The translations under genes were made by a program, and so were the position numbers. From positions 329,049-393,048 of the forward strand of contig JACKGO010000001.1 in NCBI GenBank assembly GCA_020631975.1: a DNA stretch of 64,000 nt. Direction: 5' to 3'. The notes under the pieces are model-generated. The model was not told the origin of the DNA. It made no database searches and was given only the letters and a program-made list of their open reading frames with translations. This document shows positions 2-53,426 of this stretch, one piece after another. The DNA comes from Candidatus Nomurabacteria bacterium (GTDB lineage: Bacteria; Patescibacteriota; Saccharimonadia; Saccharimonadales; CAIOMD01). Every line of letters begins with the position of its first letter. The stretch's first letter is position 1.

Positions 2-1504
2 GGTGGGCGGGATTTTGAATACCCCGGATTTGGCCAAATAAATTACGCAACAACTCCGCGTAGCCCAGGCTCTACCTTCAAACCTTACGATTATGCCGCC
101 TTGATGACGAAGTCGCAAAACTGGGGCCCAGGTAGTATTTTGTATGACTTAAAAACTAATTTTGGTGGTGGTTATAGCCCAGACGACTATGATAAAAAAC
201 AGCCAGGTGCACTATCAATGCGTCAATCATTAGGTGGTTCTAGAAATATTCCTGCTATTAAAGCCATGTACATGGCAGGCATACCATACGTACACGATAC
301 AGCAAAAAAGATGGGGCTCACCAGCGGCGTAACGGGTTGTTACACGCCGGGCGTAGAAGACTGCCAAGAGATTTTATCTACTGCGATTGGTGATGGTGGT
401 CAAGTACGCTTAGATGAACATGTTAATGCCTTTGCTACGTTTTCACGTATGGGAAACTATAAACCGATTACATATTACACAAAGGTAGAGGACAACAAAG
501 GTAAAGTTATTTATGAATGGACCGATCCAGCCGGTGAACGTGCCCTAGACGAGCAAGTAGCATATTCTATCAACAACATACTTAGCGATGGCGCAGCACG
601 ATACGTAGGGTTAGATAACAGAGTAAGAATAAATGGTGTCACAACAGCGGTAAAGACTGGAACCACAAATAACTCTGATAACGGGTGGCTCATGGGCTTT
701 AATACGAAAATTGCAGCTGGAGTATGGGTTGGTCATCACGAAAATAAAACACTAAGCGGATTTATGGAACATAAAACCGCACCTATCTGGCGTGAGTTTT
801 TTGCAAAAGCCAACAAAGACCTAGCAGGAGCTGGCGATAAATGGACGCAGCCTGCTGGCATGAAACGAGTATGTCTTAGCCCAACGACAGGCTATGCTGC
901 AAAAAGCGGTGGTAAGTGCGATATCTTTCCAAGCTGGTATAAACCACAATACCCTGACTCAACAAAGTCAGCCACGATTGATTCTATTTCTAATAAACTC
1001 GCAACCGAGTGTACACCAGAACGTGCCAAACAAGCTATCACAAGTGGTGGTATACGCGCCGAGCTGCCCACGAGTGACCCAAACTACAATAATTGGATGA
1101 ACCCAATTAAAGCACGCTACGGAGGCGCTGGTGGTGGACTTATACCAACAGATAAAGATGATATTCATACCTGCGACCCTGCTGACAAACCAACGGTTAG
1201 CTTAAGCGAAGTACAAAAAAAGCCAGACGGTAGTTACAGCGTGACCGCCACGATTAAAAAAGGTAAATACCCGTTAACGAGCGTGAGCTTTTCTATTAAC
1301 GGTACTGTGCTTGAGGGCGGGTCTTATGACATTTCAGACAGCGTGTCTATTCCTTTTGTCTTTAGACCAAGTGGGTCTGGCACACAAACAATCACAGCTA
1401 ATGTTGTAGACTCTGTATTATATGATGCTAGTGATGCGACAAGCTTTACGGTGAGTGCTGCACCGAGTGCGAGTGATGATACTCCGTCACCAGTGCTGCC
1501 TTAG
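2..1504 (+). CDS. Class A penicillin-binding protein, C-terminal part (transpeptidase domain plus Ig-like tail); 5' end lies upstream of the window
   Basis: Frame 2 is open from the window edge. It contains SPGSTFKP (SxxK active-site motif, nt 62-85) and KTGTTNN (KTG motif). Same frame as ORF-track 101..1504. Confidence 0.85.
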   Translation, partial: GGRDFEYPGFGQINYATTPRSPGSTFKPYDYAALMTKSQNWGPGSILYDLKTNFGGGYSPDDYDKKQPGALSMRQSLGGSRNIPAIKAMYMAGIPYVHDTAKKMGLTSGVTGCYTPGVEDCQEILSTAIGDGGQVRLDEHVNAFATFSRMGNYKPITYYTKVEDNKGKVIYEWTDPAGERALDEQVAYSINNILSDGAARYVGLDNRVRINGVTTAVKTGTTNNSDNGWLMGFNTKIAAGVWVGHHENKTLSGFMEHKTAPIWREFFAKANKDLAGAGDKWTQPAGMKRVCLSPTTGYAAKSGGKCDIFPSWYKPQYPDSTKSATIDSISNKLATECTPERAKQAITSGGIRAELPTSDPNYNNWMNPIKARYGGAGGGLIPTDKDDIHTCDPADKPTVSLSEVQKKPDGSYSVTATIKKGKYPLTSVSFSINGTVLEGGSYDISDSVSIPFVFRPSGSGTQTITANVVDSVLYDASDATSFTVSAAPSASDDTPSPVLP

Positions 1505-1573
1505 CACTATTAGCGTACAACTAGTGCTTGTGTAATCAATCTGAAATACACGTCATAAATGTTTTAAAAGTAG

Positions 1574-2386
1574 CTACCGTGTAGTTGTATGGCTATTGAT
1601 TATATGTGAGCGCTTCTTAGTATTATTTGTGCGCTTTTGCTGAAACGGACGTTGTTTTATATCTTTAGATGCTACTGTTTGATTCTTAGCCTTAATGGTT
1701 GGTTGAGAAACCTTTTTCGCAAATAGCATTTTTCCTGCTACGGTTTGATGCGATTTATTTATCGTTACCTGTATTGATTTACCAATGTCTTTAATTGCCC
1801 CATCAACAACGACCATAGTACCGTCGTCTAGGTAGCCGACCCCTTGATCACGGTTGGTACCAGATTGCAAAATTGTCACATGCGCAGTTTCTCCCGGCAA
1901 CGCTACTGGTCGGACAGCGTGGGCGAGCTCATTAACATTAAGCACGGTGACACCTTCTATGGTTGCTACCTGATTGAGATTGTAATCGGTGGTAAATAAC
2001 TCAGCAGATGTCAATTTGGCAAGTGCTACAAGGTTTTCATCAGTTGTTACCTTGCCCGGTTGTGTTTCGTCTATTGTGACGTCTAGCTCAGCGTCATTTT
2101 GTAATTGCTGCACGACATTCAAGCCAAAGCGAGCGCGCTCACGTTTATAGCTATCACGGCCGTCAGCCAATAATTGTAGTTCTTTAACAATAAATTGTGG
2201 AACAATGATTTTTTTAGGCATAAACCCTATTTTGGCGAGCTCAATGACCCTTCCATCTATCAGCGCACAGCTGTCCAAAATAACACTACTTGCACCACCA
2301 GTAGGTTGCGTGATTTTTTTACGTGGTTTTTTATATACTAAAACTACTATTAATAAGAGAAGTCCAATAATTATTATATCTGTCAT
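1574..2386 (-). CDS. PIN/TRAM domain-containing protein (YacL-like), N-terminal TM helix
   Basis: ILDSCALIDGR...ELQLLADGRD is PIN-like and the C-terminal region is TRAM-like. It is adjacent to radA, as yacL is in Firmicutes. Confidence 0.7.
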   Translation of the reverse strand: MTDIIIIGLLLLIVVLVYKKPRKKITQPTGGASSVILDSCALIDGRVIELAKIGFMPKKIIVPQFIVKELQLLADGRDSYKRERARFGLNVVQQLQNDAELDVTIDETQPGKVTTDENLVALAKLTSAELFTTDYNLNQVATIEGVTVLNVNELAHAVRPVALPGETAHVTILQSGTNRDQGVGYLDDGTMVVVDGAIKDIGKSIQVTINKSHQTVAGKMLFAKKVSQPTIKAKNQTVASKDIKQRPFQQKRTNNTKKRSHIINSHTTTR

Positions 2387-2388
2387 GG

Positions 2389-3756
2389 TTAGCCTTTCAT
2401 CAGCGTGTCGTTAAGGATTGTTTTTATGTTTTTTGCTTCTTTATATTGTAGACCAGAATTTGTTTGCGACTTTTGTAATCGTGGACCAATAACACTTGTG
2501 AAACCCATTTTTTGGGCCTCTTGAATGCGTTTTTCTAGCCATGGTACATGTCGCACCTCTCCACTTAAACCTACTTCGCCAAACACCACAGCATCTGTAC
2601 TTAGTTGCATGCCTTTCGCTGCTGAAGCAATCGCCATGCATATAGCCAAATCGGCAGCGTTTTCAGTTATTTTTATGCCTCCAACTATATTGATATAAAT
2701 GTCTTTGTCAGAAAGCTTCAGCTTGGTTCGGCGCTCAAGCATTGCAACAAGCAAATTAAGTCGGTTTAGATCAAACCCAGATGCTGCACGCTTAGGATAG
2801 CCGTAGCTTGTTGTATTAACGAGTGCTTGTACTTCTACTAGTATTGGCCTTGTGCCTTCTAGGGTTGCGAGCACGATAGAACCGTCACTGATTTGTCGCT
2901 CTGAAAGTAATGCTGCTGATGGATTTGTAACGACATGCAGACCCTTATCGGACATCTCTAGAATGACTGCTTCGTTTGTAGAGCCGAACCTATTTTTTAT
3001 GCCTCTTAAGACGCGAAATCCTGCATATCGGTCACCCTCTAGCTGCAATACGACATCCACTAAGTGTTCAAGAACTTTTGGGCCTGCGATAGAACCTTCT
3101 TTTGTAACGTGCCCCACCAAGATAACCGCAGTATTGGACTGTTTAGCTGCCAGCGTAATCAGTTGAGCACTGTTCGTAACTTGGCTGACTGAGCCGGGCA
3201 CACCAGTGATTTCATCTGTTGCTAATGTTTGCACTGAATCGACAATAACCACATTGTATTCACCAGAAACAATCGTAGTAGCAATGTCGTTTGCGCTGTT
3301 ACTGGTTGCTATAACTACGTTTTTATCTATTGCACTGCTAATACGCTTGCCTCTCATGGCGACTTGTTCTGCTGACTCTTCACCACTTACGTATAGAAGC
3401 GAGCTAGTCTGTGCAATTGCATACGCAAGTTGTAGTAGTAACGTGCTCTTTCCTATACCAGGTTGTCCAGCTAGCAGTGTCACGCTACCATGTACTAAAC
3501 CACCACCTAACACCTTGTCTACATCAGCCACACCAACAGGTATTCTGTCTGAATGGCTGACTGCGGTCTGCTCATTGATAGTTGTTGCTTTAAGCACGCT
3601 TCCGCTATGGACTGCTTGTTGGCCTTTTGTGCTGCCACGAACGTCTAGCACTTGCTGGATAGTGTTCCAGGCGCCACACGTAGCACACTTACCACTCCAG
3701 GATCCGTATGCTTCTCCACAATCACTGCAAACATATTTTGTCTTAGCCTTTGGCAT
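2389..3756 (-). CDS. radA: DNA repair protein RadA/Sms
   Basis: N-terminal zinc ribbon CSDCGE...CATCGAWNT, Walker A GQPGIGKST, Lon-like C-terminal domain, 455 aa. Confidence 0.95.
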   Translation of the reverse strand: MPKAKTKYVCSDCGEAYGSWSGKCATCGAWNTIQQVLDVRGSTKGQQAVHSGSVLKATTINEQTAVSHSDRIPVGVADVDKVLGGGLVHGSVTLLAGQPGIGKSTLLLQLAYAIAQTSSLLYVSGEESAEQVAMRGKRISSAIDKNVVIATSNSANDIATTIVSGEYNVVIVDSVQTLATDEITGVPGSVSQVTNSAQLITLAAKQSNTAVILVGHVTKEGSIAGPKVLEHLVDVVLQLEGDRYAGFRVLRGIKNRFGSTNEAVILEMSDKGLHVVTNPSAALLSERQISDGSIVLATLEGTRPILVEVQALVNTTSYGYPKRAASGFDLNRLNLLVAMLERRTKLKLSDKDIYINIVGGIKITENAADLAICMAIASAAKGMQLSTDAVVFGEVGLSGEVRHVPWLEKRIQEAQKMGFTSVIGPRLQKSQTNSGLQYKEAKNIKTILNDTLMKG

Positions 3757-43677: not shown

Positions 43678-46464
43678 TTAGCCAAACAGTAGCCCAGCTG
43701 CAACCATACAAGCTACAAGAACACCCACGATAAGCAAACCTTTTTTCCGGCTAATTCTGGTACGGGTAAATTCAGCGCCAAGATAATAATAAGGGAACAC
43801 TGTAATAACCAGGAACGTGCTTGATAACAAGCCAAAAATAATCAACACTGCAAGTCCTTGCCAAAATGGGCTAAGAATAGCAAGTGGTGTGATTGCAACG
43901 ACCGCCGTAAGACTTGTCGCAATTAGTGGGCGAAAACGTTCTTGCAGGGCTTCGCTAATGGCATCTACCGCACCCTTGCCTGCCTTGCGAGCTTGGTTTG
44001 CATAGTCTGTTAGCAAAATAGTGTTTTTAATACTAAGCCCAATAAGCGCAAAGAAACCGAGCATCGCAAAGAAGCTGAATGGGTTATCTGTAAGATACAG
44101 GCTCAAGCTTATACCAAAGAAGCTGAATGGGAGTGCAAAAAAGATAAGCAGTGGCTGTAGTAGTGAGCGGAATTGCACCGCTAGTAAAATATAAATTGCA
44201 AGTAAAACAAACGGGAAGGCAATGCCTAGCGCCGCAAAACTATCTTGATTTTCTGCTTCTTGACCGAGGTCGTACTGCAACGCTTCATTGTTTAAACCAT
44301 ACGATGCTACTTTTTCAGGTGGGAATGCTTCATTTACAGCAGCCTCTGTAAGATTAAATAGTCGCGTTGTGTCGCTGCCGTCAAATTCGGCGCTAACAGG
44401 TACACGTAATGTACTATCTGCTCGGGTAAACGAACTAGGGTTGGGTGGCGAGACATTTGTTACACTTGCAGTCGTTCCATCTGGGCGCGTAACAGTGAGT
44501 GTTTCAAAAAAGGTAGCTACGTCTTGCGCCAGGGCAAGTGAAGCTTCACGGTTATCGTCCACGATAACAACTGTAAACGCCTGAGCTGGTGGGCCAGCAT
44601 CTACTTGTGCAGCCTTAGACTGGACCGTGGGTAATTGCTCGTCGAGGGCTGATTGCACTTGGCTCACGAGCTCTGGTGAACGGACATCTCTCTTAGAATA
44701 TGAGATCAGTTTTATAGAAAGCGTAGCGCTACGTTCATCGCCACTATTGTAAAGTGAGCCATATTCTAGGTTTTCGTCTAGGGTTGTATTAATGATTTGC
44801 GTTGCTTTATTGGTGTAGTCTTCTGCAGCCGTAAGGTCGGTGCCTGGTGCAAACGATAGAGTCACCTGCATATCATTAGCGTCTTTTGAAGCAGGAAAGA
44901 TATTAAACGCTACTTTTGTTGCAAAATAGCCCCCTGCTGCAATAAAGCCAAACCCAATAACAACCGCAGTGAGTCCAACTAACGTTAACCGTTTGAGTGA
45001 GTTTTTTGCCCACTGCATTGGTCTAGCTATAAACTCAGCCAGTTTATGCTCGAACCCTGCTGCAACCTCTTTAATGCCGTCTTCACCCATTGACTTTTTG
45101 TTTAAGAGCACGAATTTCGCTAGATACGGTATAAATATTAAAGATACTAACAGGCTAATAAGCAGTGCCGCAATAACTGTCGCCGGTATTGCCCGTATAA
45201 ATGTCCCTAGTATTCCACCAACGAATAACAGTGGCATAAAGCTTAACACTGCTACAAAAGTTGCGCTTAACATTGCACGGCTAATTTTACGCGTAGCCTC
45301 AGCGACTGCTTTTCTGGCACTCTTTTGCCGCCTACGCTGAGCGTCGATGGCTTCAATCATGATAATAGTGTCGTCAACAATGAGCGCTAAACTTAAGATA
45401 AGTGCAAATAGTGTTATGACATTGAGGGTGTAGCCAAGCACGTATAACAGTCCTATCACTCCAAAGATAATCACAATGAGGGCAATAACCGTTATAAAGG
45501 ATGCCCGTAATGCAATCACAAGTGCTCCCACAACCAACACGGCTACAAGTGCAATCAGTAGTTCACGCTGAAGTTCAGAAATATTATCTCTGATATCGGG
45601 TGCAAAACTGGCACTCACAACAGCACTTGTTGACGTGTCAGATTGATTGGCAACTATCTCACCTACAGCCGCATTTACTTCGTCATCAAATTGAAGCAAA
45701 TCGGCTGAATCTGTTTTAGTGACACCTACGAGTACCGATGGATACAGTGTACTTTGGTTTGCTTCTCTTTGGCTATATGCATCAAACGTCCTTTGAATGA
45801 TTTGCGATTGCCCTGTAAACGGATTGGTTGCTTGCTGGAAAGGATCTATGACGTAAGCTTTCTTAACTGTTGATAAGTTTTTTTGATTAAGTTCATCTGC
45901 AAATAGTTGGGCAGATGCAACCAACTGCTCTGTTGTTTGGTTAGCCTTACCATACACAGAAATACCAATATCCACAGGCTCTAGTTGTCTGCCGGCAGGG
46001 CTAATATACGGTGCACTTACCGTTACTTGCGCTTGCTCAGGAATTATATTCTCTGTCTTTAGTGTAGACTCTAGCTGTGCTGCGGCTTCTTGAGCATTCA
46101 CTGACTCTTCATACCGTACAAATACGTTAAAGAAGTTATCAAAGGCTTGTGATTGGACGGTTGCCACGCCTTGCTGTTTCATAGCAGCGTCAGAAATCGG
46201 TTTTGCAACAGAAGTGTCTACTTTTTCGGCATCACCAATGTAAGTACCATTAATGCTGGCGACCGGAAAATCAATACTTGGAAAGCCTTCACGTTTTAGA
46301 AGGGTAGTGTAACTTAGTACGCCAAAGGCGAAAATAAACAACAACAATGCCGCAGTAAATCGTGGCCTATCAAAAAAGAATAGGCTAAATTTTGGCAATA
46401 ATTTAGCATCATTTTTAGTAAAGGTCGTTTGCTTGACCTTTTTTGTCGTAGTTTTTTTTGCCAT
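43678..46464 (-). CDS. RND-superfamily efflux permease (AcrB-like), 928 aa
   Basis: 12-TM architecture with two large loops and an AcrB-like N-terminus (FFFDRPRFTAALLL). SD AAGGGGGAG. No adaptor or outer-membrane partner gene is adjacent. Confidence 0.8.
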   Translation of the reverse strand: MAKKTTTKKVKQTTFTKNDAKLLPKFSLFFFDRPRFTAALLLFIFAFGVLSYTTLLKREGFPSIDFPVASINGTYIGDAEKVDTSVAKPISDAAMKQQGVATVQSQAFDNFFNVFVRYEESVNAQEAAAQLESTLKTENIIPEQAQVTVSAPYISPAGRQLEPVDIGISVYGKANQTTEQLVASAQLFADELNQKNLSTVKKAYVIDPFQQATNPFTGQSQIIQRTFDAYSQREANQSTLYPSVLVGVTKTDSADLLQFDDEVNAAVGEIVANQSDTSTSAVVSASFAPDIRDNISELQRELLIALVAVLVVGALVIALRASFITVIALIVIIFGVIGLLYVLGYTLNVITLFALILSLALIVDDTIIMIEAIDAQRRRQKSARKAVAEATRKISRAMLSATFVAVLSFMPLLFVGGILGTFIRAIPATVIAALLISLLVSLIFIPYLAKFVLLNKKSMGEDGIKEVAAGFEHKLAEFIARPMQWAKNSLKRLTLVGLTAVVIGFGFIAAGGYFATKVAFNIFPASKDANDMQVTLSFAPGTDLTAAEDYTNKATQIINTTLDENLEYGSLYNSGDERSATLSIKLISYSKRDVRSPELVSQVQSALDEQLPTVQSKAAQVDAGPPAQAFTVVIVDDNREASLALAQDVATFFETLTVTRPDGTTASVTNVSPPNPSSFTRADSTLRVPVSAEFDGSDTTRLFNLTEAAVNEAFPPEKVASYGLNNEALQYDLGQEAENQDSFAALGIAFPFVLLAIYILLAVQFRSLLQPLLIFFALPFSFFGISLSLYLTDNPFSFFAMLGFFALIGLSIKNTILLTDYANQARKAGKGAVDAISEALQERFRPLIATSLTAVVAITPLAILSPFWQGLAVLIIFGLLSSTFLVITVFPYYYLGAEFTRTRISRKKGLLIVGVLVACMVAAGLLFG

Positions 46465-46497: not shown

Positions 46498-48267
46498 TTA
46501 CATGGATAATTCAAAAGATTTTAATCGCTTTTTAGCGTTTTCGTCTTGGCGGTGGCTAATGGTTAATAGTTGTGCGTAAATACCATTCGTTTTACTAAGT
46601 TCTTGCGGTGTACCAATTTCGTCTACCTGCCCGTTCTTTAGCGTGATTATTAAATCAACATGGGCAATAGTCGTGAGCCGGTGAGCAATAATAATCGTCG
46701 TTCTACCTTTCATAAGTTTATCCATAGCTTGCTGTACGGCTACTTCACTCTTGCTATCTAGGCTGCTGGTTGCTTCGTCAAGTATCAGTATTGGGGCATT
46801 TTTTAAGAGTGCTCTTGCAATGGCTATGCGCTGCTTTTGACCACCGCTTAATTTTAAGCCACGTTCACCGATTTCTGTTTGGTACCCCTTTTCAAATTTA
46901 CTAATAAATTCGTGGGCATTGGCATTTTTAGCGGCTTTAATAATGTCTTCTTCTGTAGCATTTTGGTGAGCATACGCAATATTTTCTTTAATAGTGCCAC
47001 TAAATAAGGCAGGCTCCTGAAAAACTACACCAATATTTTTACGTAATGATTTTTGAGTAACACTACTTATGTCTTGGCCTGCTACTGTAATACACCCGCT
47101 CGATGGCTCGTAAAAGCGTAGTAGCAAATTTGTCAGTGTGGTCTTACCTTCGCCACTTTCGCCAACAAGGGCAACTTTTTGACCGTTTTGTATATGAAAA
47201 GAAATGTCTTTAAGCACCTGCTTATCGCCATAGCCAAAGCTCACGGAATCAAAAACAATGGTGGGTTTTTTACTGGTAAACACTTTTGCATCAGGTGCAT
47301 CTGTTATGTCTGATTGTATCGCCATAACTTCAAAGTAATCTTTACTGTCTGCAATAGCCCGTTGTGTGTTGTCTACCAAAAAACTAATTGTAAATATGGG
47401 GATCCTTATTTGCATCGCATACAATATAAGAGCGACCGCTTGGCCTGGAGTAAAAACCCCTTTAGCTCCTTGCACAAAAATAAATAAATACACCAAAAAG
47501 AAAATAATATTAAGTATCAGCCGCCGCTGGACGTCTTTGGTGTGCCAATATTTAGATTGAGGTACGTTAATTGCTACAGCTTTATCTATATACTTACTAA
47601 AAATACTAAGTTCGTACTTTTCTTGGATAAAGCTTTTAACAACTTTGATCTGCCCAACACTTTCGGCAAACCGACCGCTGGCAATATCGGCATTTAAATT
47701 TTTGTCTTTTTGGTAGTTTTGCCAGGTGTTACTGGTGCGCATTGTTAAGAATATATATATTGGGTATAACACACCTAAGAGTAATGCAACTTGCCAACTA
47801 TAATACGCTACAATGGCAAGGGCAAAAATTGTACTAAAAATAAACTGCAAAAAGTTATTACTAAGCATCTGCATAAAACTAGTAATTTGGTTTATCGAGC
47901 GATTAAGTCGATTGATGATTTTACCAGAAAGCTCCGTATCAAAGTACGTCTGTGGCAAATCTAGCAAATGCTGGTAATACCGAAAACTCAATATTTTATA
48001 TAATTTCATCGATAGCTGGTCGCCCCAGTAACCGCTGATATTATTGCCAATGGTTGCAACTACTTCGATAGCTAAAATACCCAATGCTAACATGACCATA
48101 TACTGCACATCGGCAGACGTGCCTTTTTGCATTTCGTCTATGGCCCAGCCAGAAAGCATTGGCATGGCGAGCCCAACTATACTCAGCACTACAGTGAAAA
48201 TACTAATCGCTACGTAGTAGCGCCATAGTTCTTTACTAAGGGTTATTATTCGCCAAATTGACTGCAT
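46498..48267 (-). CDS. ABC exporter, fused permease/ATPase half-transporter (MsbA-like)
   Basis: N-terminal 6-TM domain, Walker A GESGEGKTT, signature LSGGQKQR, Walker B ILILDEATS. Confidence 0.88.
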   Translation of the reverse strand: MQSIWRIITLSKELWRYYVAISIFTVVLSIVGLAMPMLSGWAIDEMQKGTSADVQYMVMLALGILAIEVVATIGNNISGYWGDQLSMKLYKILSFRYYQHLLDLPQTYFDTELSGKIINRLNRSINQITSFMQMLSNNFLQFIFSTIFALAIVAYYSWQVALLLGVLYPIYIFLTMRTSNTWQNYQKDKNLNADIASGRFAESVGQIKVVKSFIQEKYELSIFSKYIDKAVAINVPQSKYWHTKDVQRRLILNIIFFLVYLFIFVQGAKGVFTPGQAVALILYAMQIRIPIFTISFLVDNTQRAIADSKDYFEVMAIQSDITDAPDAKVFTSKKPTIVFDSVSFGYGDKQVLKDISFHIQNGQKVALVGESGEGKTTLTNLLLRFYEPSSGCITVAGQDISSVTQKSLRKNIGVVFQEPALFSGTIKENIAYAHQNATEEDIIKAAKNANAHEFISKFEKGYQTEIGERGLKLSGGQKQRIAIARALLKNAPILILDEATSSLDSKSEVAVQQAMDKLMKGRTTIIIAHRLTTIAHVDLIITLKNGQVDEIGTPQELSKTNGIYAQLLTISHRQDENAKKRLKSFELSM

Positions 48268-48308: not shown

Positions 48309-50093
48309 CTAATCCATAAAATCTTGTGCTTGTATTGTGTACAGTTCGGCGTAATGACCATTTTGCGCCATTAATTCCTTGTGTGTTCCCTGCTCTATTA
48401 TGTGTCCATCATCTACAACGTATATGTAGTCAGCTTTACGAACCGTCGCAAAACGATGCGACACAATGAGTACAGTGGCGCTGGCGCTTTTTTCAAAGAT
48501 ACTATTAAATATACTGCGCTCGGCTTTGGCATCTATTGCAGAGGTTGGTTCATCTAATATCAATAAATCAAACGGTTTTAACAATGTTCTAGCAATAGAT
48601 AAGCGTTGGCGTTGGCCACCAGATAAGTCTGCTCCGTCTTTGTATGATTTATCGAGCCGTGTATCGAGCTGATGTGGCAGGCTTAGAATCTTTTGTTTAA
48701 GATGCACAACATCAAGAGCTGCTAAAATATCATCTTTAGTGAGCGTCCTACCGGCCACTACTTCAAGATTTTGCTTTATGGTTAGATCATCAAACAAATA
48801 ATAATCTTGGCTAAGAACAGATGTGTGTTTATACAGGCTTTCGCGGCTCAGTTGCTTGGTTGCTATGCCATTGATTATTAGTGTTCCCTCAGTGGGTTCG
48901 TATTGTTTGGCAATAATCCGCAGTAGCGACGTCTTACCGGCACCGTTTTCACCCACAATAGCCACCTTTTGGCCTGCAGAAATGCTTAGTGTTACGTTTT
49001 TTAGAGCCTGTGTACCATTTTGATACTTCAGAGATATATCGCGTAGCTCTATTGCTATGCCACCGCCACCTATTTGAATCTTTTCGGTGCCATCTGGTGC
49101 ATCGGGGATATCCATAACATCTTTAAGGGCAGCCGTAGCAAGATATGTTTCTTGAGCCCGTGATATGTTATAGCCCAATATAAAGGTTTGCGAACTAGCT
49201 TGTTGTATGAGTCCAATCACAAATAAAAACTGGTCAAAGGCCAGTTTACCACCAGCCACAAGTAGTATTGCCCAGATTCTGGTGCCAACTTCTATAAGTG
49301 GAGAAGATATATCTTCAAATAAAGAAAAGAAGGCGTTTTTGCGGACAGCTTGCATCTCTATATCCATTTCTTTACGTAAGTGTTTTTCGCGTAGCTTTAA
49401 TATGCTGTCGCGGGCCCCCATAATACGTATCTCAAACAGTCGCAGCGGATCAGTAATATAATTAAATAATCCCCAAGATATACGCCAATGTATGGTACTT
49501 TCTTCCCACGATTTACGGCTACGTTTTGTTTGGTAATAATTACTAACCGCTAGTATTGGTATAAGGACAAAAAGTAGCACAGCTATACCCCATGCATACT
49601 GCCACACCACTACTACGGCGAGTATATACGCCGCAATGCTTGAAGCAATGTTTTGCAACGTATCGGCAGCTCCCTGCACGGTGTATAATTCCCTACTCGC
49701 CATGCTCAAAGAAGTTTGCAAATTCGGATTATCTAGTTGTTCTTGGGTAAACGAAGATACTTTACTGCTATACAGCGTGCTGACATAAATATTTACTTGC
49801 TCGGAAAACTTTCTGTCGTAGTAATAGGTAATACGCCGTATTACATCAAATAGTATTGTTACCGCTCCAAATAATAGTGCCCACACAACTGGCGTACGCA
49901 CCGTAACAGAACCGGTAGCAAGCAATGCAACCGATGCCGTTACCTGGGCCAGTAAGTAAGTTGTAATAATGCCACTAACACTGTTGGTAAGAAATGTACT
50001 AAGACTCGTAAAGGCAAAGATACGCTTGTTGGTACGCCAACTCAGGCCAACGGCCCACAAAAACGGTGATAGCACTTTCGTTATATTTTTCAT
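48309..50093 (-). CDS. ABC exporter, fused permease/ATPase half-transporter (probable heterodimer partner)
   Basis: Walker A GENGAGKTS, signature LSGGQRQR, Walker B LLILDEPTS. ATG at 50093 preferred over the ORF-track TTG at 50168. Confidence 0.85.
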   Translation of the reverse strand: MKNITKVLSPFLWAVGLSWRTNKRIFAFTSLSTFLTNSVSGIITTYLLAQVTASVALLATGSVTVRTPVVWALLFGAVTILFDVIRRITYYYDRKFSEQVNIYVSTLYSSKVSSFTQEQLDNPNLQTSLSMASRELYTVQGAADTLQNIASSIAAYILAVVVVWQYAWGIAVLLFVLIPILAVSNYYQTKRSRKSWEESTIHWRISWGLFNYITDPLRLFEIRIMGARDSILKLREKHLRKEMDIEMQAVRKNAFFSLFEDISSPLIEVGTRIWAILLVAGGKLAFDQFLFVIGLIQQASSQTFILGYNISRAQETYLATAALKDVMDIPDAPDGTEKIQIGGGGIAIELRDISLKYQNGTQALKNVTLSISAGQKVAIVGENGAGKTSLLRIIAKQYEPTEGTLIINGIATKQLSRESLYKHTSVLSQDYYLFDDLTIKQNLEVVAGRTLTKDDILAALDVVHLKQKILSLPHQLDTRLDKSYKDGADLSGGQRQRLSIARTLLKPFDLLILDEPTSAIDAKAERSIFNSIFEKSASATVLIVSHRFATVRKADYIYVVDDGHIIEQGTHKELMAQNGHYAELYTIQAQDFMD

Positions 50094-50125
50094 TGCAGTG
50101 TTTCTTATATTGTTTACACTGCAAT
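50092..50125 (-). promoter_or_regulatory. 10-bp perfect hairpin sequestering the ABC-exporter start codon
   Basis: The minus-strand RNA reads ATTGCAGTGT-(14 nt)-ACACTGCAAT, and the final AT are the first two bases of the ATG (50093..50091). An upstream ACACTG copy could pair with the 5' arm instead. Confidence 0.5.
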
Positions 50126-50278
50126 AATAGCACAGTGTAGCTAAGTGTAGCGTTGCCGCAGAGCACAAACAATTTAGTTTATGATCTATGGGAACGCAGG
50201 TGTTGTTGCATCCTGTCTTGACACATCGGGCATATACTTCATGCCTCTGAAGGTCAGTTCCCCCGGTTTTCTTTCCGG

Positions 50279-50410
50279 CTAGTGCTCGAGCGGGCAGATG
50301 TCGGGATCATGCCCGGTCGTTCCGCATCTTAAGCAGTTCAGCTTAATGCCTCCCATGCCCCGCTTCTTGCCCCCATTGCAATTGGGACAACAGCCTTTGC
50401 AGCTCGCCAT
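50279..50410 (-). CDS. Unannotated 43-aa Cys/His-rich micro-protein (MASCKGCCPNCNGGKKRGMGGIKLNCLRCGTTGHDPDICPLEH), zinc-knuckle-like
   Basis: ATG at 50410 and TAG at 50281..50279. GGAGGAGGTGA (50427..50417) ends 6 nt upstream of the ATG. The spacings CX2CCX2C and CX2CX4HX4C are both present. The ORF is below the ORF-track length cutoff. Confidence 0.5.
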   Translation of the reverse strand: MASCKGCCPNCNGGKKRGMGGIKLNCLRCGTTGHDPDICPLEH

Positions 50411-50613
50411 GTTACTTCACCTCCTCCAAGGTATAGTAGGTACGATAAGTAAGGGCTCGGTCGGGGGGTACGGGGGATGTGACCCCCGACCGAGCCTCTC
50501 TTGATAGCCTTTTCGGGCAGTCAAGAGGGAGGTGGTACGGAGGATCCTCGCTTGTGCGGGGCTTTTGCACGCGCTTTAGGCGTCCACTCCGTCCCCACTT
50601 GGTACAATAAACG
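50411..50613 (-). ncRNA. GC-rich, hairpin-dense segment between the tRNA-Pro 3' end and the micro-ORF (candidate cis-regulatory leader or small structured RNA; class unknown)
   Basis: Three consecutive stems are visible: 50537-42/50587-92, 50498-504/50521-27, and a perfect 14-bp stem 50454-67/50483-96. An anti-SD-like CACCTCC sits at 50534..50528. GC is about 50-65% by hand count. Confidence 0.4.
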
Positions 50614-50686
50614 TCGGGGTGGCAGGAATTGAACCTACGCTCCCGGCGCCCAACGCCAGAGCTCTACCAAACTGAGCTACACCCCG
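50614..50686 (-). tRNA. tRNA-Pro (anticodon UGG), CCA not encoded
   Basis: Hand-folded cloverleaf. Acceptor CGGGGTG/CACCCCG; D arm GCTC-AGTTTGGTA-GAGC; anticodon stem CTGGC/GCCGG with loop GTTGGGC (U33, UGG, G37); T arm GTAGG-TTCAATT-CCTGC; discriminator A. Confidence 0.92.
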
Positions 50687-50689
50687 TGT

Positions 50690-50770
50690 GATAGTGCCTA
50701 CGTTGGTGTGGTAGGCTATCTTTTTTACCGACTACGACAACAGCGCAATCAGCACAAAAGATAGTCTACC
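50690..50770 (-). promoter_or_regulatory. Three-arm alternative-pairing element immediately upstream of the tRNA-Pro 5' end
   Basis: In the minus-strand RNA, arm1 is GGTAGACTATCTTTT (50770..50756), arm2 is AAAAGATAGCCTACC (50724..50710) and arm3 is GTAGGCACTATC (50701..50690). Arm2 can pair with arm1 (14/15) or with arm3. Confidence 0.4.
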
Positions 50771-50871
50771 AAAAACCAGACCGATTCATACTTATTTTAG
50801 TTGCAACAACACCTGTTAATGTACTTGCCTATCATGGGCTAAATTTACAGCCTCACGGGCACAGCTATACC

Positions 50872-50900
50872 ATATTACAACGTTTCTACAATTTGGTCAA
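50872..50900 (-). promoter_or_regulatory. Strong sigma-70-type promoter downstream of pheT (-35 TTGACC, 17 nt, -10 TAATAT), ~180 nt upstream of tRNA-Pro
   Basis: On the minus strand TTGACC is at 50900..50895 and TAATAT at 50877..50872. Confidence 0.55.
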
Positions 50901-50915
50901 GCCTTATTACGCTTG

Positions 50916-53426
50916 CTATATACGTTTCGCGTTATACGCCTTGGCGACTTCTGACGTCGCTTTTTCTACTAAGCTAGTAAGTTCTTGGGTAGTCATAGTG
51001 CGCTCATGATTGCTCATACTAAGCCGGAACGTGTAGTTAATGTGACTATCTGTTTTATAACTATCTATGGCAATAAGTGAATAAATTGATTTTTCTGGAA
51101 TATGCTGGGCAATTGCTTTCTGAAGCGAAGTAGAAATCGTGGCAAAGAGCATACTACTATCTACCTGTAGGGTAATATCTTGGTTTATAGAGGGGTATTT
51201 TGGTAGCTGCACATACCGTTTAGGAGTGCCTAGCGAGTGTTGTAAAAGAGGCACAATATTCAGTTCAAAACCTGCACAATAGCTTGGGAGTTTAAGCTTT
51301 TTCATTGTTTTGGCTTGTAATTCACCTACTACACCCAATGTTTCGCCGTCATCAGTCGCAATGACTGCACTACGCGTTGCTAGGAAAGGTTGCGACATAT
51401 CATTAGCTGGCTGGTTTGGCACGTCTGTAAAAGGAGTAAATGTAGCTTTAATGCCGAGTTTTTGTAACACACCATTAAGATACTCTTTTGCATAGTAATA
51501 TGGTTCGCCTTCGTAGTTTTTACGTTTCTTTTCGTCAGCCGCAAATACAAAAGCGAGGTTTTCATGTTCTATTGGTAAACCATCTTCTGCCACATACTGC
51601 TTAGAATGGGCTTTACCTATTTCAAATAAAGCAAATTCACCATAACCAGCTTTTATGTTTAGGTGAACCTTTTCTAGCACACTTGGTAAAACGCTCAGGC
51701 GATAGTACTGCAAGCGGGGGCTTAGGGCATTACTTAGTTTGTACGCATTACTTATGTCTTGATTAGACGCTTCTATGAGATCGCTATGCACAAACGTATA
51801 GGTAAGAAGTTCATTTGCACCCATGGCTGCCAAGGTGTGCCGTAGAGTTTCTTTAAAGTGTATTGAAGTATTCTTTTTGGCAGGTTTAGCAATGCGGGTT
51901 GGCAAGGCAATAGGTAACTTTTCATAACCATAGAGCCTGCCGACTTCTTCTACAATGTCTTCTTGTAAACGAATATCCCGGCGCCAAAATGGTACATGTA
52001 TGGTAATTGCATCGCTATGAACATCTACCTTACATTCTACGTTCTCTAATAATTGTGCGATTTGCTGGGCGCTTAGTTGTGAGCCTAAGCGAGTGTTTAT
52101 AAACTCTGCAGTAGTGCTGACGGGAGCCAATGGCACTACGGTGTCATCTTTATAGTCAACTACCGAACTAGCCAGTTGACCCCCTGCAATGCTTTGGACC
52201 ATTTCTGTTGCTTTGTGTAATACTCGCAGATTTTGCAAAGGGCTTTGCCCTTTGTTAAAGCGTGTTACGGCGTCTGTGAATAAACCATATTTCATGGCTG
52301 TACGCCGTATGTTGTACATATCAAAATTAGCACATTCAAGAACGATGTTTTTGGTCGTTTTGTCTACTTCTGTTTCGCTCCCACCCATAACACCACCTAT
52401 ACCAATTGGTGTATCATCAGCGCAGATAATTACCGTAGCATCATCTTGCATCATCACATCTTTACCGTTTAATAGTGCAATTGATTCTCCCTTTTTAGAT
52501 AGGCGCGCTCTAATGACGGCTTTTTTGGTGCCACTCTTTGCAATCAGTTTATCGTAATCGTATGCGTGTAAGGGCTGCCCCGTTAAGTGCATCAACCAAT
52601 TAGTAATGTCTACAATATTATTAATTGGTCGCAAGCCCACCCTACTTAGATCGGACTGCATCTGCAAGGGGCTAGCAGCCACCTGCACGTTTTTTAAGAC
52701 TATCGCACTAAAGCGTGGCACCAGTGGTGTGTCTACTGCAACTTGTAGTGGTAGATCTGTAATATTATTGAAAGTAGGATCCTGGCTATACCACTGTGGG
52801 CTTATAAAAGCTTTCTGCTGAATACCGGCAAGTTCACGCGCAACACCAAGCACACCAAAACAATCAGGTCGGTGTGTAAACATTTTATTTTCGCAATCTA
52901 CAACATCATCATCTAAGTTATATAAGCTTACAAAAGGGGTACCAGCTGGGACGTCTTCTGTAATTACTAATATACCGTCATGATCGTCACTTAGCGCAAG
53001 CTCAGCAGGACTGGCGATCATACCATTGCTACGTAGACCACGTAGTTCACGTGCACCAAGTACAAATGGTTCTTTGTCGTCGGCGGTGCTCGGTACAATT
53101 ACCCCTGGGGGTAGCCACACGACGGTTTGGCCAGTGGCTATGTTTGGGGCTCCACACACGACCTGTATACGTCCGTCTTGGTCACGCTCGATATCTTTTA
53201 TGCTATTGCCGTCATCCACCAAGCAAACACTTAGCTTATCGGCGTTGGGGTGTTTAACGCAGCTCACCACCTTAACAACTACTACACCTTGGTATTTTTT
53301 ACCCCACTCTATAACGTCTTCTACTGCACCAAGTTGTGCACCTATTTTTTTAACGACTTCATCTGTTCCAATGCTGGTGATGTCTACGTTGCTGACTGAT
53401 TGCGCCCATTTTAAACTAACATTCAT
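50916..53426 (-). CDS. pheT: Phenylalanine--tRNA ligase beta subunit
   Basis: 836 aa with an N-terminal tRNA-binding OB domain and B3/4, B5 and FDX-ACB-like regions. 1-nt gap after pheS. Confidence 0.93.
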   Translation of the reverse strand: MNVSLKWAQSVSNVDITSIGTDEVVKKIGAQLGAVEDVIEWGKKYQGVVVVKVVSCVKHPNADKLSVCLVDDGNSIKDIERDQDGRIQVVCGAPNIATGQTVVWLPPGVIVPSTADDKEPFVLGARELRGLRSNGMIASPAELALSDDHDGILVITEDVPAGTPFVSLYNLDDDVVDCENKMFTHRPDCFGVLGVARELAGIQQKAFISPQWYSQDPTFNNITDLPLQVAVDTPLVPRFSAIVLKNVQVAASPLQMQSDLSRVGLRPINNIVDITNWLMHLTGQPLHAYDYDKLIAKSGTKKAVIRARLSKKGESIALLNGKDVMMQDDATVIICADDTPIGIGGVMGGSETEVDKTTKNIVLECANFDMYNIRRTAMKYGLFTDAVTRFNKGQSPLQNLRVLHKATEMVQSIAGGQLASSVVDYKDDTVVPLAPVSTTAEFINTRLGSQLSAQQIAQLLENVECKVDVHSDAITIHVPFWRRDIRLQEDIVEEVGRLYGYEKLPIALPTRIAKPAKKNTSIHFKETLRHTLAAMGANELLTYTFVHSDLIEASNQDISNAYKLSNALSPRLQYYRLSVLPSVLEKVHLNIKAGYGEFALFEIGKAHSKQYVAEDGLPIEHENLAFVFAADEKKRKNYEGEPYYYAKEYLNGVLQKLGIKATFTPFTDVPNQPANDMSQPFLATRSAVIATDDGETLGVVGELQAKTMKKLKLPSYCAGFELNIVPLLQHSLGTPKRYVQLPKYPSINQDITLQVDSSMLFATISTSLQKAIAQHIPEKSIYSLIAIDSYKTDSHINYTFRLSMSNHERTMTTQELTSLVEKATSEVAKAYNAKRI

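Follow-up and report, generated by a model that had tools for sequence, protein, structure and literature searches.

An intercistronic RNA element was investigated upstream of an ABC exporter operon in a 64,000-nucleotide stretch of the genome of Candidatus Nomurabacteria bacterium (GTDB lineage Saccharimonadia; assembly GCA_020631975.1, contig JACKGO010000001.1, positions 329,049 to 393,048). This whole stretch is called the window, and positions are counted from its first letter. The minus strand of the window contains a conserved, strand-specific RNA element of ~115 nt (50262-50150), which lies between a micro-ORF (open reading frame) for a small cysteine-rich protein and the exporter gene ABC1. 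The best-supported helix of the element is a long imperfect hairpin, which was absent from the original prediction made from the letters of the window. We give a probability of roughly 45% to the reading that this element is an intercistronic RNA of the terminator or attenuator type, acting as a gate on transcripts that read through from the micro-ORF to the exporter genes.

The long hairpin in orthologous loci

The element was compared across 13 orthologous loci from Saccharibacteria metagenomes, all belonging to one clade. By eye it was detected in 11 loci, as a block with the invariant ACAACACC, and a covariance model detected it in 13. The model, R1, was built from 10 sequences, and its E-values are rough because the calibration was shortened. 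Exactly one sense-strand match was obtained per locus, scoring 35–80 bits compared to 15–35 bits for the antisense strand (70 vs. 21 bits in the window). The matches beyond the seed were those in loci L025, L033, and L043.

The long hairpin folds in every sequence, with z-scores of −4.6 to −8.7 (−20.0 kcal/mol and z = −6.1 in the window). When given a structure-blind MAFFT alignment, RNAalifold predicted this hairpin, and 7 of its 16 pairs showed compensatory changes. Among the 13 aligned sequences, 96.1% of the cells were paired and 9 of the 16 pairs had changed on both sides. These values were not reached in any of 500 shuffles, and when the partner column was slid, the paired fraction fell to 37–48%. 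Conserved U.G pairs were observed at two positions of the hairpin in 10–11 of the 13 sequences. These pairs, together with the lower scores and stabilities of the antisense strand, argue for an RNA on the minus strand rather than a DNA palindrome.

The same evidence bears on an explanation at the DNA level, under which the conserved block would serve ABC1 as promoter or operator DNA with palindromic repressor sites. A resemblance to weak −35/−10 hexamers was noted by eye for the 3' arm of the long hairpin and the base that follows segment C, the base of this arm, in some loci (TTGTTT-17-TACACT in the window), and L046 and L025 have a −10 box within about 12 nt after segment C. However, a simple scan for sigma-70-like promoters found none in the window's spacer between the micro-ORF and ABC1, a DNA palindrome would have C.A mismatches where the conserved U.G pairs stand, and the stems designated P2 and P4 vary in sequence while their pairing is maintained. 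The U.G pairs and the strand asymmetry of the model scores, with sense far above antisense, disfavor DNA-level control, which we regard as most improbable.

Junction helices and competing pairings

Upstream of the long hairpin, the original prediction had placed a three-way junction of the helices P1, P2, and P3, with a start-codon hairpin and two tandem repeats further downstream. All of its features (P1, P2, P3, the 10-bp repeat, the tandem repeats and their complementarity to the hairpin arm, and the missing Shine-Dalgarno sequence, SD) were located on the minus strand where they had been predicted (Table 1). Structure prediction was also in agreement, as the minimum free energy fold of 50282-50080 reproduced both the P1/P2/P3 junction and the start-codon hairpin (−61.3 kcal/mol, z = −5.2). 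Tested alone, the junction was not significant (z = −1.8), and the opposite strand behaved similarly, so the junction becomes credible only through its conservation in relatives. RNAalifold, applied to structure-blind alignments of each subgroup, recovered a three-way junction in each; in the window's subgroup this was exactly P1/P2/P3, and in the other subgroup it consisted of P1, an extra small hairpin, and P2. The predicted junction lies within conserved RNA, although its closing helix, P1, is weak.

Covariation in the hand-fitted alignment of the 5' domain appears strong for P2, modest for P3, and weak for P1. A hairpin is present at the P2 position in 13 of 13 loci, with sequences that differ greatly between subgroups and single-sequence z-scores of −1.8 to −4.5. 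In this alignment (A4), the P2 cells were 100% paired and 10 of the 11 P2 pairs showed compensatory change; ACAACACC, which P2 precedes at a fixed position, was invariant. P3 comprises 3–7 bp in the relatives, with compensatory changes in L048. For P1, 97.6% of the cells pair in the hand alignment across all sequences, with a compensatory change in 2 of 11 pairs, and its register and position vary between subgroups. A small hairpin next to the micro-ORF stop codon, P0, recurs as CCGG/CCGG in L032 and L033 and showed no covariation. A by-eye search for a pseudoknot partner of CAACAACAC, the invariant motif of the P3 loop, found no conserved one. A pairing of the invariant ACACCUG with the SD of the micro-ORF (AGGUG) was also considered by eye and dropped, being 5 bp only and with the SD missing in three loci.

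The junction and the long hairpin meet in one shared strand, segment B. It can pair with segment A (P1), with the 5' arm of P3, or with segment C at the base of the long hairpin. As both use this strand (CTGCGTTCCC), full P1 or P3 pairing and the long-hairpin base are mutually exclusive. Energies of the forced conformers in the window were −37.2 kcal/mol with P1 and −35.8 kcal/mol with B:C, and in 7 of 11 sequences the two conformers were within about 1–3 kcal/mol of each other.

Position relative to the micro-ORF and the exporter genes

The spacer on the minus strand of the window measures 185 nt, from the micro-ORF stop TAG (50281-50279) to the ABC1 start ATG (50093). In 12 of the 13 loci, a small ORF that has a strong SD ends 6–40 nt before the element starts. 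Judging from its translation, the micro-ORF of the window is a genuine gene for a small zinc-ribbon-type protein (pattern CxGCCxxCxG...CxxC...H...CP) and the upstream neighbor of the element; its product matched no Pfam family. Homologues of the window type occupy the equivalent position in L033 (300-437), L043 (1481-1618), and L042 (about 780-910). Small ORFs at the equivalent spot in other loci encode several different small zinc-ribbon kinds, and a CxxCxGxG-kind protein in L001 and L039 gave sub-threshold hits to the DnaJ central domain and Anti-TRAP. The upstream small ORF of L032 encodes 39 aa without cysteine, and in L025-L028 the element is kept while no micro-ORF is recognizable there. 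The conserved RNA element is absent from L049, the most distant ortholog (39% identity), in which ribosomal protein L33, itself a zinc-ribbon protein, is encoded directly upstream of ABC1.

The element had been described as the leader of the ABC exporter. It does adjoin ABC1 in 11 of the 13 loci, but as a general description the label is doubtful because the element tracks the micro-ORF, persists in L033, and is followed in most cases by an ABC1 gene with a −10-like box of its own. In L033, the element is intact and is followed next by a convergent ORF of 606 aa (572-2392, minus strand; no Pfam hit), which has its stop 3 nt from the element, with ABC1 1.9 kb further on. In L043, a 224-aa ORF (1804-2478, plus strand; no Pfam hit) lies between the element and ABC1. 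The −10-like boxes were found in 11 of 14 ABC1 orthologs as TAnnnT ending 5–13 nt before the SD-less start (background 0.28). This suggests that the ABC1 orthologs may be expressed from leaderless or very-short-leader mRNAs, with a putative promoter at the ABC1 start. Leaderless mRNAs may be common in this genome, as suggested by the about 15 of 49 long ORFs in the window that have TAnnnT ending 5–12 nt before an SD-less ATG. Examples of such gene starts are 3756, 4756, 15452, 27566, 37366, 39012, 39584, 48267, 54447, 55269, and 59599; the start at 48267 is that of the second exporter gene, ABC2, which shares the pattern as TATACT. ABC1 of the window is exceptional, with a degenerate proximal −10 (TATAAG) located within the loop of the start-codon hairpin.

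Several of these observations would fit a constitutive element in the 3' untranslated region (UTR) of the micro-ORF mRNA, unlinked to the exporter, which could serve as a non-canonical terminator or 3'-end stabilizer, a source of small RNA (sRNA), or a protein-binding site. The element sits right after the micro-ORF stop codon, is kept beside the convergent gene in L033, is separated from ABC1 by the inserted gene in L043, and coexists with ABC1 orthologs that have promoter-like −10 boxes at their own starts. However, a 3'-UTR element of this kind is at odds with L025-L028, which keep it without a detectable micro-ORF, and with the otherwise strict synteny with ABC1, and the competing pairings of segment B would have no obvious role if the element were constitutive. 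Taken with the evidence on both sides, we consider this explanation unlikely.

A proposed terminator or attenuator between the micro-ORF and the exporter

From the sequences, we infer how the element might be transcribed, terminate, switch, and respond to a signal. It would be co-transcribed with the upstream micro-ORF and would consist of two parts, namely a junction (P2, the P3 loop with the invariant CAACAACAC, and the weak closing helix P1) and the ~21-bp imperfect hairpin. The long hairpin would end, pause, or stabilize most transcripts from the micro-ORF promoter. Pairing of segment B with segment A or with the P3 arm would weaken this hairpin, and the element would thereby set the amount of transcription that continues into the ABC1-ABC2-RND operon. 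Candidate trigger signals are a ligand, a protein on CAACAACAC, or, in the loci with short spacing, a terminating ribosome; the latter could reach segment A in only 3–4 loci. In the window, if ABC1 relies on read-through because of its degenerate −10 (TATAAG), the start-codon hairpin may further damp ABC1 translation.

Canonical intrinsic (Rho-independent) terminators combine a G+C-rich stem with a U-tract. The long hairpin has an A+U-rich, mismatched stem, CUACACUU comes after segment C in the window, and runs of at least five U after segment C occur in L042 and L048 only. As the U-tract is missing, the long hairpin does not qualify as a canonical intrinsic terminator, and a terminator scan of 49900-50950 returned nothing. 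The missing U-tract does not exclude termination, since canonical terminators made of a hairpin and a U-tract showed no enrichment in this genome.

Several points weigh against a terminator or attenuator. The window and its closest relatives have no U-tract after the long hairpin, and the invariant single-stranded motif and the multi-helix junction exceed what a plain terminator needs. The shuffle test of the P1 duplex was not significant in most single sequences (p = 0.41 in the window; combined p about 0.015, uncorrected for relatedness), and for this reason P1 is not claimed as established. The pair counts of the 5' domain depend on the hand-fitted alignment; in a structure-blind MAFFT alignment over all subgroups, P2 was misaligned and the junction of the 5' domain was not recovered. 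Lastly, the compensatory counts are inflated by shared ancestry among the loci, which number only 13 and come from a single clade.

Comparison with known regulatory RNAs

The original prediction had not been able to assign a riboswitch class, and our searches agree, as Rfam 15 gave no match to the element. Only tRNA reached the gathering score in the window and 8 related loci, and at E-values up to 10 the region 49900-50700 returned only chance microRNA and sRNA hits. A hammerhead or other ribozyme was rejected given the lack of an Rfam hit.

A ligand-binding riboswitch was considered, in which P1, P2, and P3 would form an aptamer with the invariant CAACAACAC and CCCAUAG, and the ligand would stabilize P1, block the long hairpin, and turn the exporter on. 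Exporters are typical riboswitch targets, and the element lies beside an ABC/RND exporter in most of the loci. Like transcriptional riboswitches, it has invariant unpaired nucleotides within a multi-helix junction, exporter genes downstream, and a closing helix with a 3' strand common to the downstream hairpin. In the modeled folds, segment B would be this strand, shared between the closing helix and the candidate expression platform; P3 overlaps the base of the long hairpin as well, and the conformers are near-equal in energy. Unlike transcriptional riboswitches, the element belongs to no Rfam family, has a weakly supported P1 with a register and position that shift between subgroups, follows a coding gene and not a promoter, and is retained in L033 without a co-directional downstream gene. 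Additionally, most orthologs appear to own a promoter at the ABC1 start, and the junction architecture differs by subgroup, the extra hairpin belonging to one and P3 to the other. We therefore regard such a riboswitch as very unlikely. With respect to the earlier proposal of an aptamer plus an expression platform, the junction region is a conserved structured RNA, whereas the platform at the start codon found no support in the 13 orthologs.

Leader-peptide attenuation of the bmrB, trp, or ermC type does not describe the element, in which all helices begin after the micro-ORF stop. In Bacillus subtilis, bmrB-bmrCD is controlled by a ribosome-mediated transcriptional attenuator with helices within the leader ORF (PMC4191407). 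The present locus resembles it in that a small ORF immediately precedes a pair of heterodimeric ABC exporter genes, with mutually exclusive RNA pairings in between, one of which is a terminator-like hairpin. It differs in that the helices lie 6–40 nt past the stop codon with none in the ORF, the ORF encodes conserved zinc-ribbon proteins and is no mere leader peptide, and a U-tract is lacking after the hairpin. The element and bmrB-bmrCD showed no relation in sequence.

In bacteriocin and lantibiotic operons such as nisA-nisB, a leaky hairpin terminator after the small structural gene sets the ratio of two messages. The order of a small, variable, putatively highly expressed, cysteine-rich peptide gene, an inverted repeat, and transporter genes is similar here. 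In contrast to nisA-nisB, a leader peptide is lacking from the micro-ORF products and a peptidase domain from the ABC proteins, modification enzymes are absent, and the element is far more elaborate and is conserved in sequence.

The start-codon hairpin and upstream repeats

The perfect 10-bp inverted repeat at the ABC1 start forms a hairpin that reaches 12 bp in RNA and includes the whole AUG. Taken alone, this hairpin has a z-score of −5.2; in the ABC1 start region of the window, the probability that the AUG is paired is 0.99 (z = −3.9). No SD precedes the ATG at 50093. The loop holds TATAAG (50109-50104), central between the arms, and an extended −10-like motif, TGcTATTAT, is found at 50132-50124.

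The original prediction had read this hairpin and the two GCTACACT copies as an expression platform with an ON/OFF alternative. Neither part was found in the relatives. None of the 13 orthologous ABC1 start regions contains a start-codon hairpin (z-scores of −1.7 to +1.8, longest perfect arms 4–6 nt), which leaves the window alone among 14 start regions, and no orthologous locus compared carries the GCTACACT repeats. The original prediction itself had named this absence as grounds for refuting it. Six orthologs were tested for inverted repeats of 7 nt or longer in the interval from the element to the ATG, and none had any. The ON pairing fared no better. TACACTG (50139-33) is indeed complementary to CAGTGTA (50121-15), but this 7-bp pairing is 6.4 kcal/mol weaker than the hairpin, and its equilibrium pair probability is 4e-5. 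By comparison with the orthologs, the start-codon hairpin and the GCTACACT repeats are genome-specific add-ons outside the putative conserved device.

Perfect inverted repeats of 10 nt or more, separated by loops of 3–30 nt, number 4 in the 64-kb window, compared to about 2.6 expected from simulations, so the start-codon hairpin is notable solely for its location. The arm motif ATTGCAGTGT has no excess of copies in the window, and second copies are within chance. The repeat by itself could block translation in this lineage specifically, serve as a repressor operator with one arm on either side of the degenerate −10 (TATAAG), or be due to chance. Its perfection over 10 bp, a z-score of about −5, the paired AUG, and the central position of TATAAG between the arms would suit a function of this kind. 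On the other side stand its absence from the 13 orthologs, a repeat count near expectation, the lack of a second copy of the arm motif beyond chance, the much weaker anti-hairpin, and the by-eye observation that the TGcTATTAT motif would start transcripts inside the 5' arm. An explanation confined to the repeat thus appears rather doubtful. As with hairpins of the ermC/cat type, the AUG is enclosed in the 12-bp hairpin of the window, whose 5' arm has a potential pairing partner upstream. Unlike in that type, these segments have no leader peptide overlapping them, there is no SD that could be sequestered, the alternative pairing is much weaker, and nothing is kept in the orthologs.

The 8 nt around the ABC1 start codon of L036 and L039 (about 2496-2504) hold an overlapping mini-ORF of three codons, ATG-CCA-TGA (ATGCCATGA).

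Features of the locus and neighboring genes

Table 1. Coordinates of the RNA features and adjoining genes in the window.
Feature	Position	Strand	Description
Micro-ORF	50279..50410	-	43 aa, 7 Cys + 1 His in translation; strong (near-perfect) SD GGAGGAGGTG
P0	50263..50278	-	Small hairpin CCGG-AAAGAAAA-CCGG, immediately 3' of stop codon; predicted fold
P1, 5' arm (segment A)	50257..50262	-	GGGAAC; pairs with GTTCCC 50195-90
P2	50219..50256	-	Long hairpin; outer TGAC 50256-53 / GTCA 50222-19; inner GGCAT 50245-41 / ATGCC 50233-29
P3	50197..50215	-	CAGG 50215-12 / CCTG 50200-197; closes loop with invariant CAACAACAC (50208-50200)
Segment B	50189..50199	-	CTGCGTTCCCA; shared strand of P1, P3, and the long-hairpin base
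Long imperfect hairpin, ~21 bp	50150..50197	-	5' arm 50197-50177; loop 50176-50171; 3' arm 50170-50150, base = segment C GGCAACGC
Two GCTACACT copies	50134..50151	-	50151-44 and 50141-34; period 10; first overlaps last two bases of the long hairpin
Start-codon inverted repeat, perfect 10 bp	50092..50125	-	ATTGCAGTGT 50125-16 / ACACTGCAAT 50101-092
ABC1	48309..50093	-	594-aa ABC exporter half-transporter; no SD; Pfam hits
ABC2	46498-48267	-	589-aa ABC exporter half-transporter, downstream of ABC1
RND/AcrB-like protein	43678-46464	-	Downstream of ABC2

The order on the minus strand is pheS and pheT, tRNA-Pro (50686-50613), a 14-bp hairpin (50496-50454), the micro-ORF, the spacer, ABC1, ABC2, and the AcrB/RND-like protein. 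ABC1 and ABC2 are half-transporters of ABCB-type (type IV) exporters, and the solved structures nearest to ABC1 are ABCB-type exporters and TM288. The ABC1 N-terminus from the ATG at 50093 is kept in all orthologs. Public gene calls for ABC1 (P0001 and P0003) are short at the N-terminus, with 464 and 352 aa, and the missing SD is the likely cause.

A full-length ABC1 profile search recovered about 20 orthologs at 58–69% identity, plus one at 39%. The 14 distinct ABC1 start regions came from looking up contigs and from two further loci, one in a genome and one in a metagenome. Protein searches using the transmembrane half of ABC1 found almost nothing, probably because gene callers truncate the N-terminus. 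A scan of a genome collection yielded one true relative, a Candidatus Saccharibacteria metagenome-assembled genome, which is the closest genome; ABC genes of Prochlorococcus and Polaribacter from the same scan were unrelated. A DNA-pattern scan of metagenomes gave one relative, L032, and two further hits that were due to chance, within GC-rich coding sequence.

The 14-bp hairpin between tRNA-Pro and the micro-ORF is perfect, and its homologues in L032, L044, and L033 have altered arms that are still complementary. The tRNA transcription unit probably ends there. Next to the locus, L001 (3420-3545), L043 (about 1040-1140), and L032 (5959-6144) have sequences that resemble tRNAs but contain internal insertions or received odd anticodon calls. 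ARAGORN called them 'tRNA-???' and tRNA-Phe(aaa), Rfam called none, and they may be intron-containing or degenerate tRNAs.

In L025-L028, ABC1 is frameshifted into ORFs of 112 aa and 512 aa in several independent assemblies (L025 2688-4539). In these loci, the loop of the long hairpin contains an insertion of structured sequence, about 130 nt in length, and the element is preceded by about 800 nt that are highly structured and free of ORFs.

Significance for Saccharibacteria

Gene regulation in Patescibacteria (CPR, for candidate phyla radiation) is almost unexplored, and our literature searches turned up no account of a riboswitch or regulatory RNA occurring naturally in Saccharibacteria. It is conceivable, if distinctly unlikely, that the element represents a new class of riboswitch or attenuator confined to the Saccharibacteria, which would sense a small molecule or the translation state and switch on the ABC/RND exporter operon. 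If true, it would be the first natural regulatory RNA described for exporter genes of this phylum. Caution is warranted in that the most eye-catching feature of the locus, the perfect start-codon hairpin, is the one without comparative support. The model R1 can be used across all Patescibacteria genomes to define the family. A conserved, covarying RNA that can adopt competing folds between a micro-protein gene and a multidrug-type exporter operon provides a concrete and testable regulatory element in these episymbionts.

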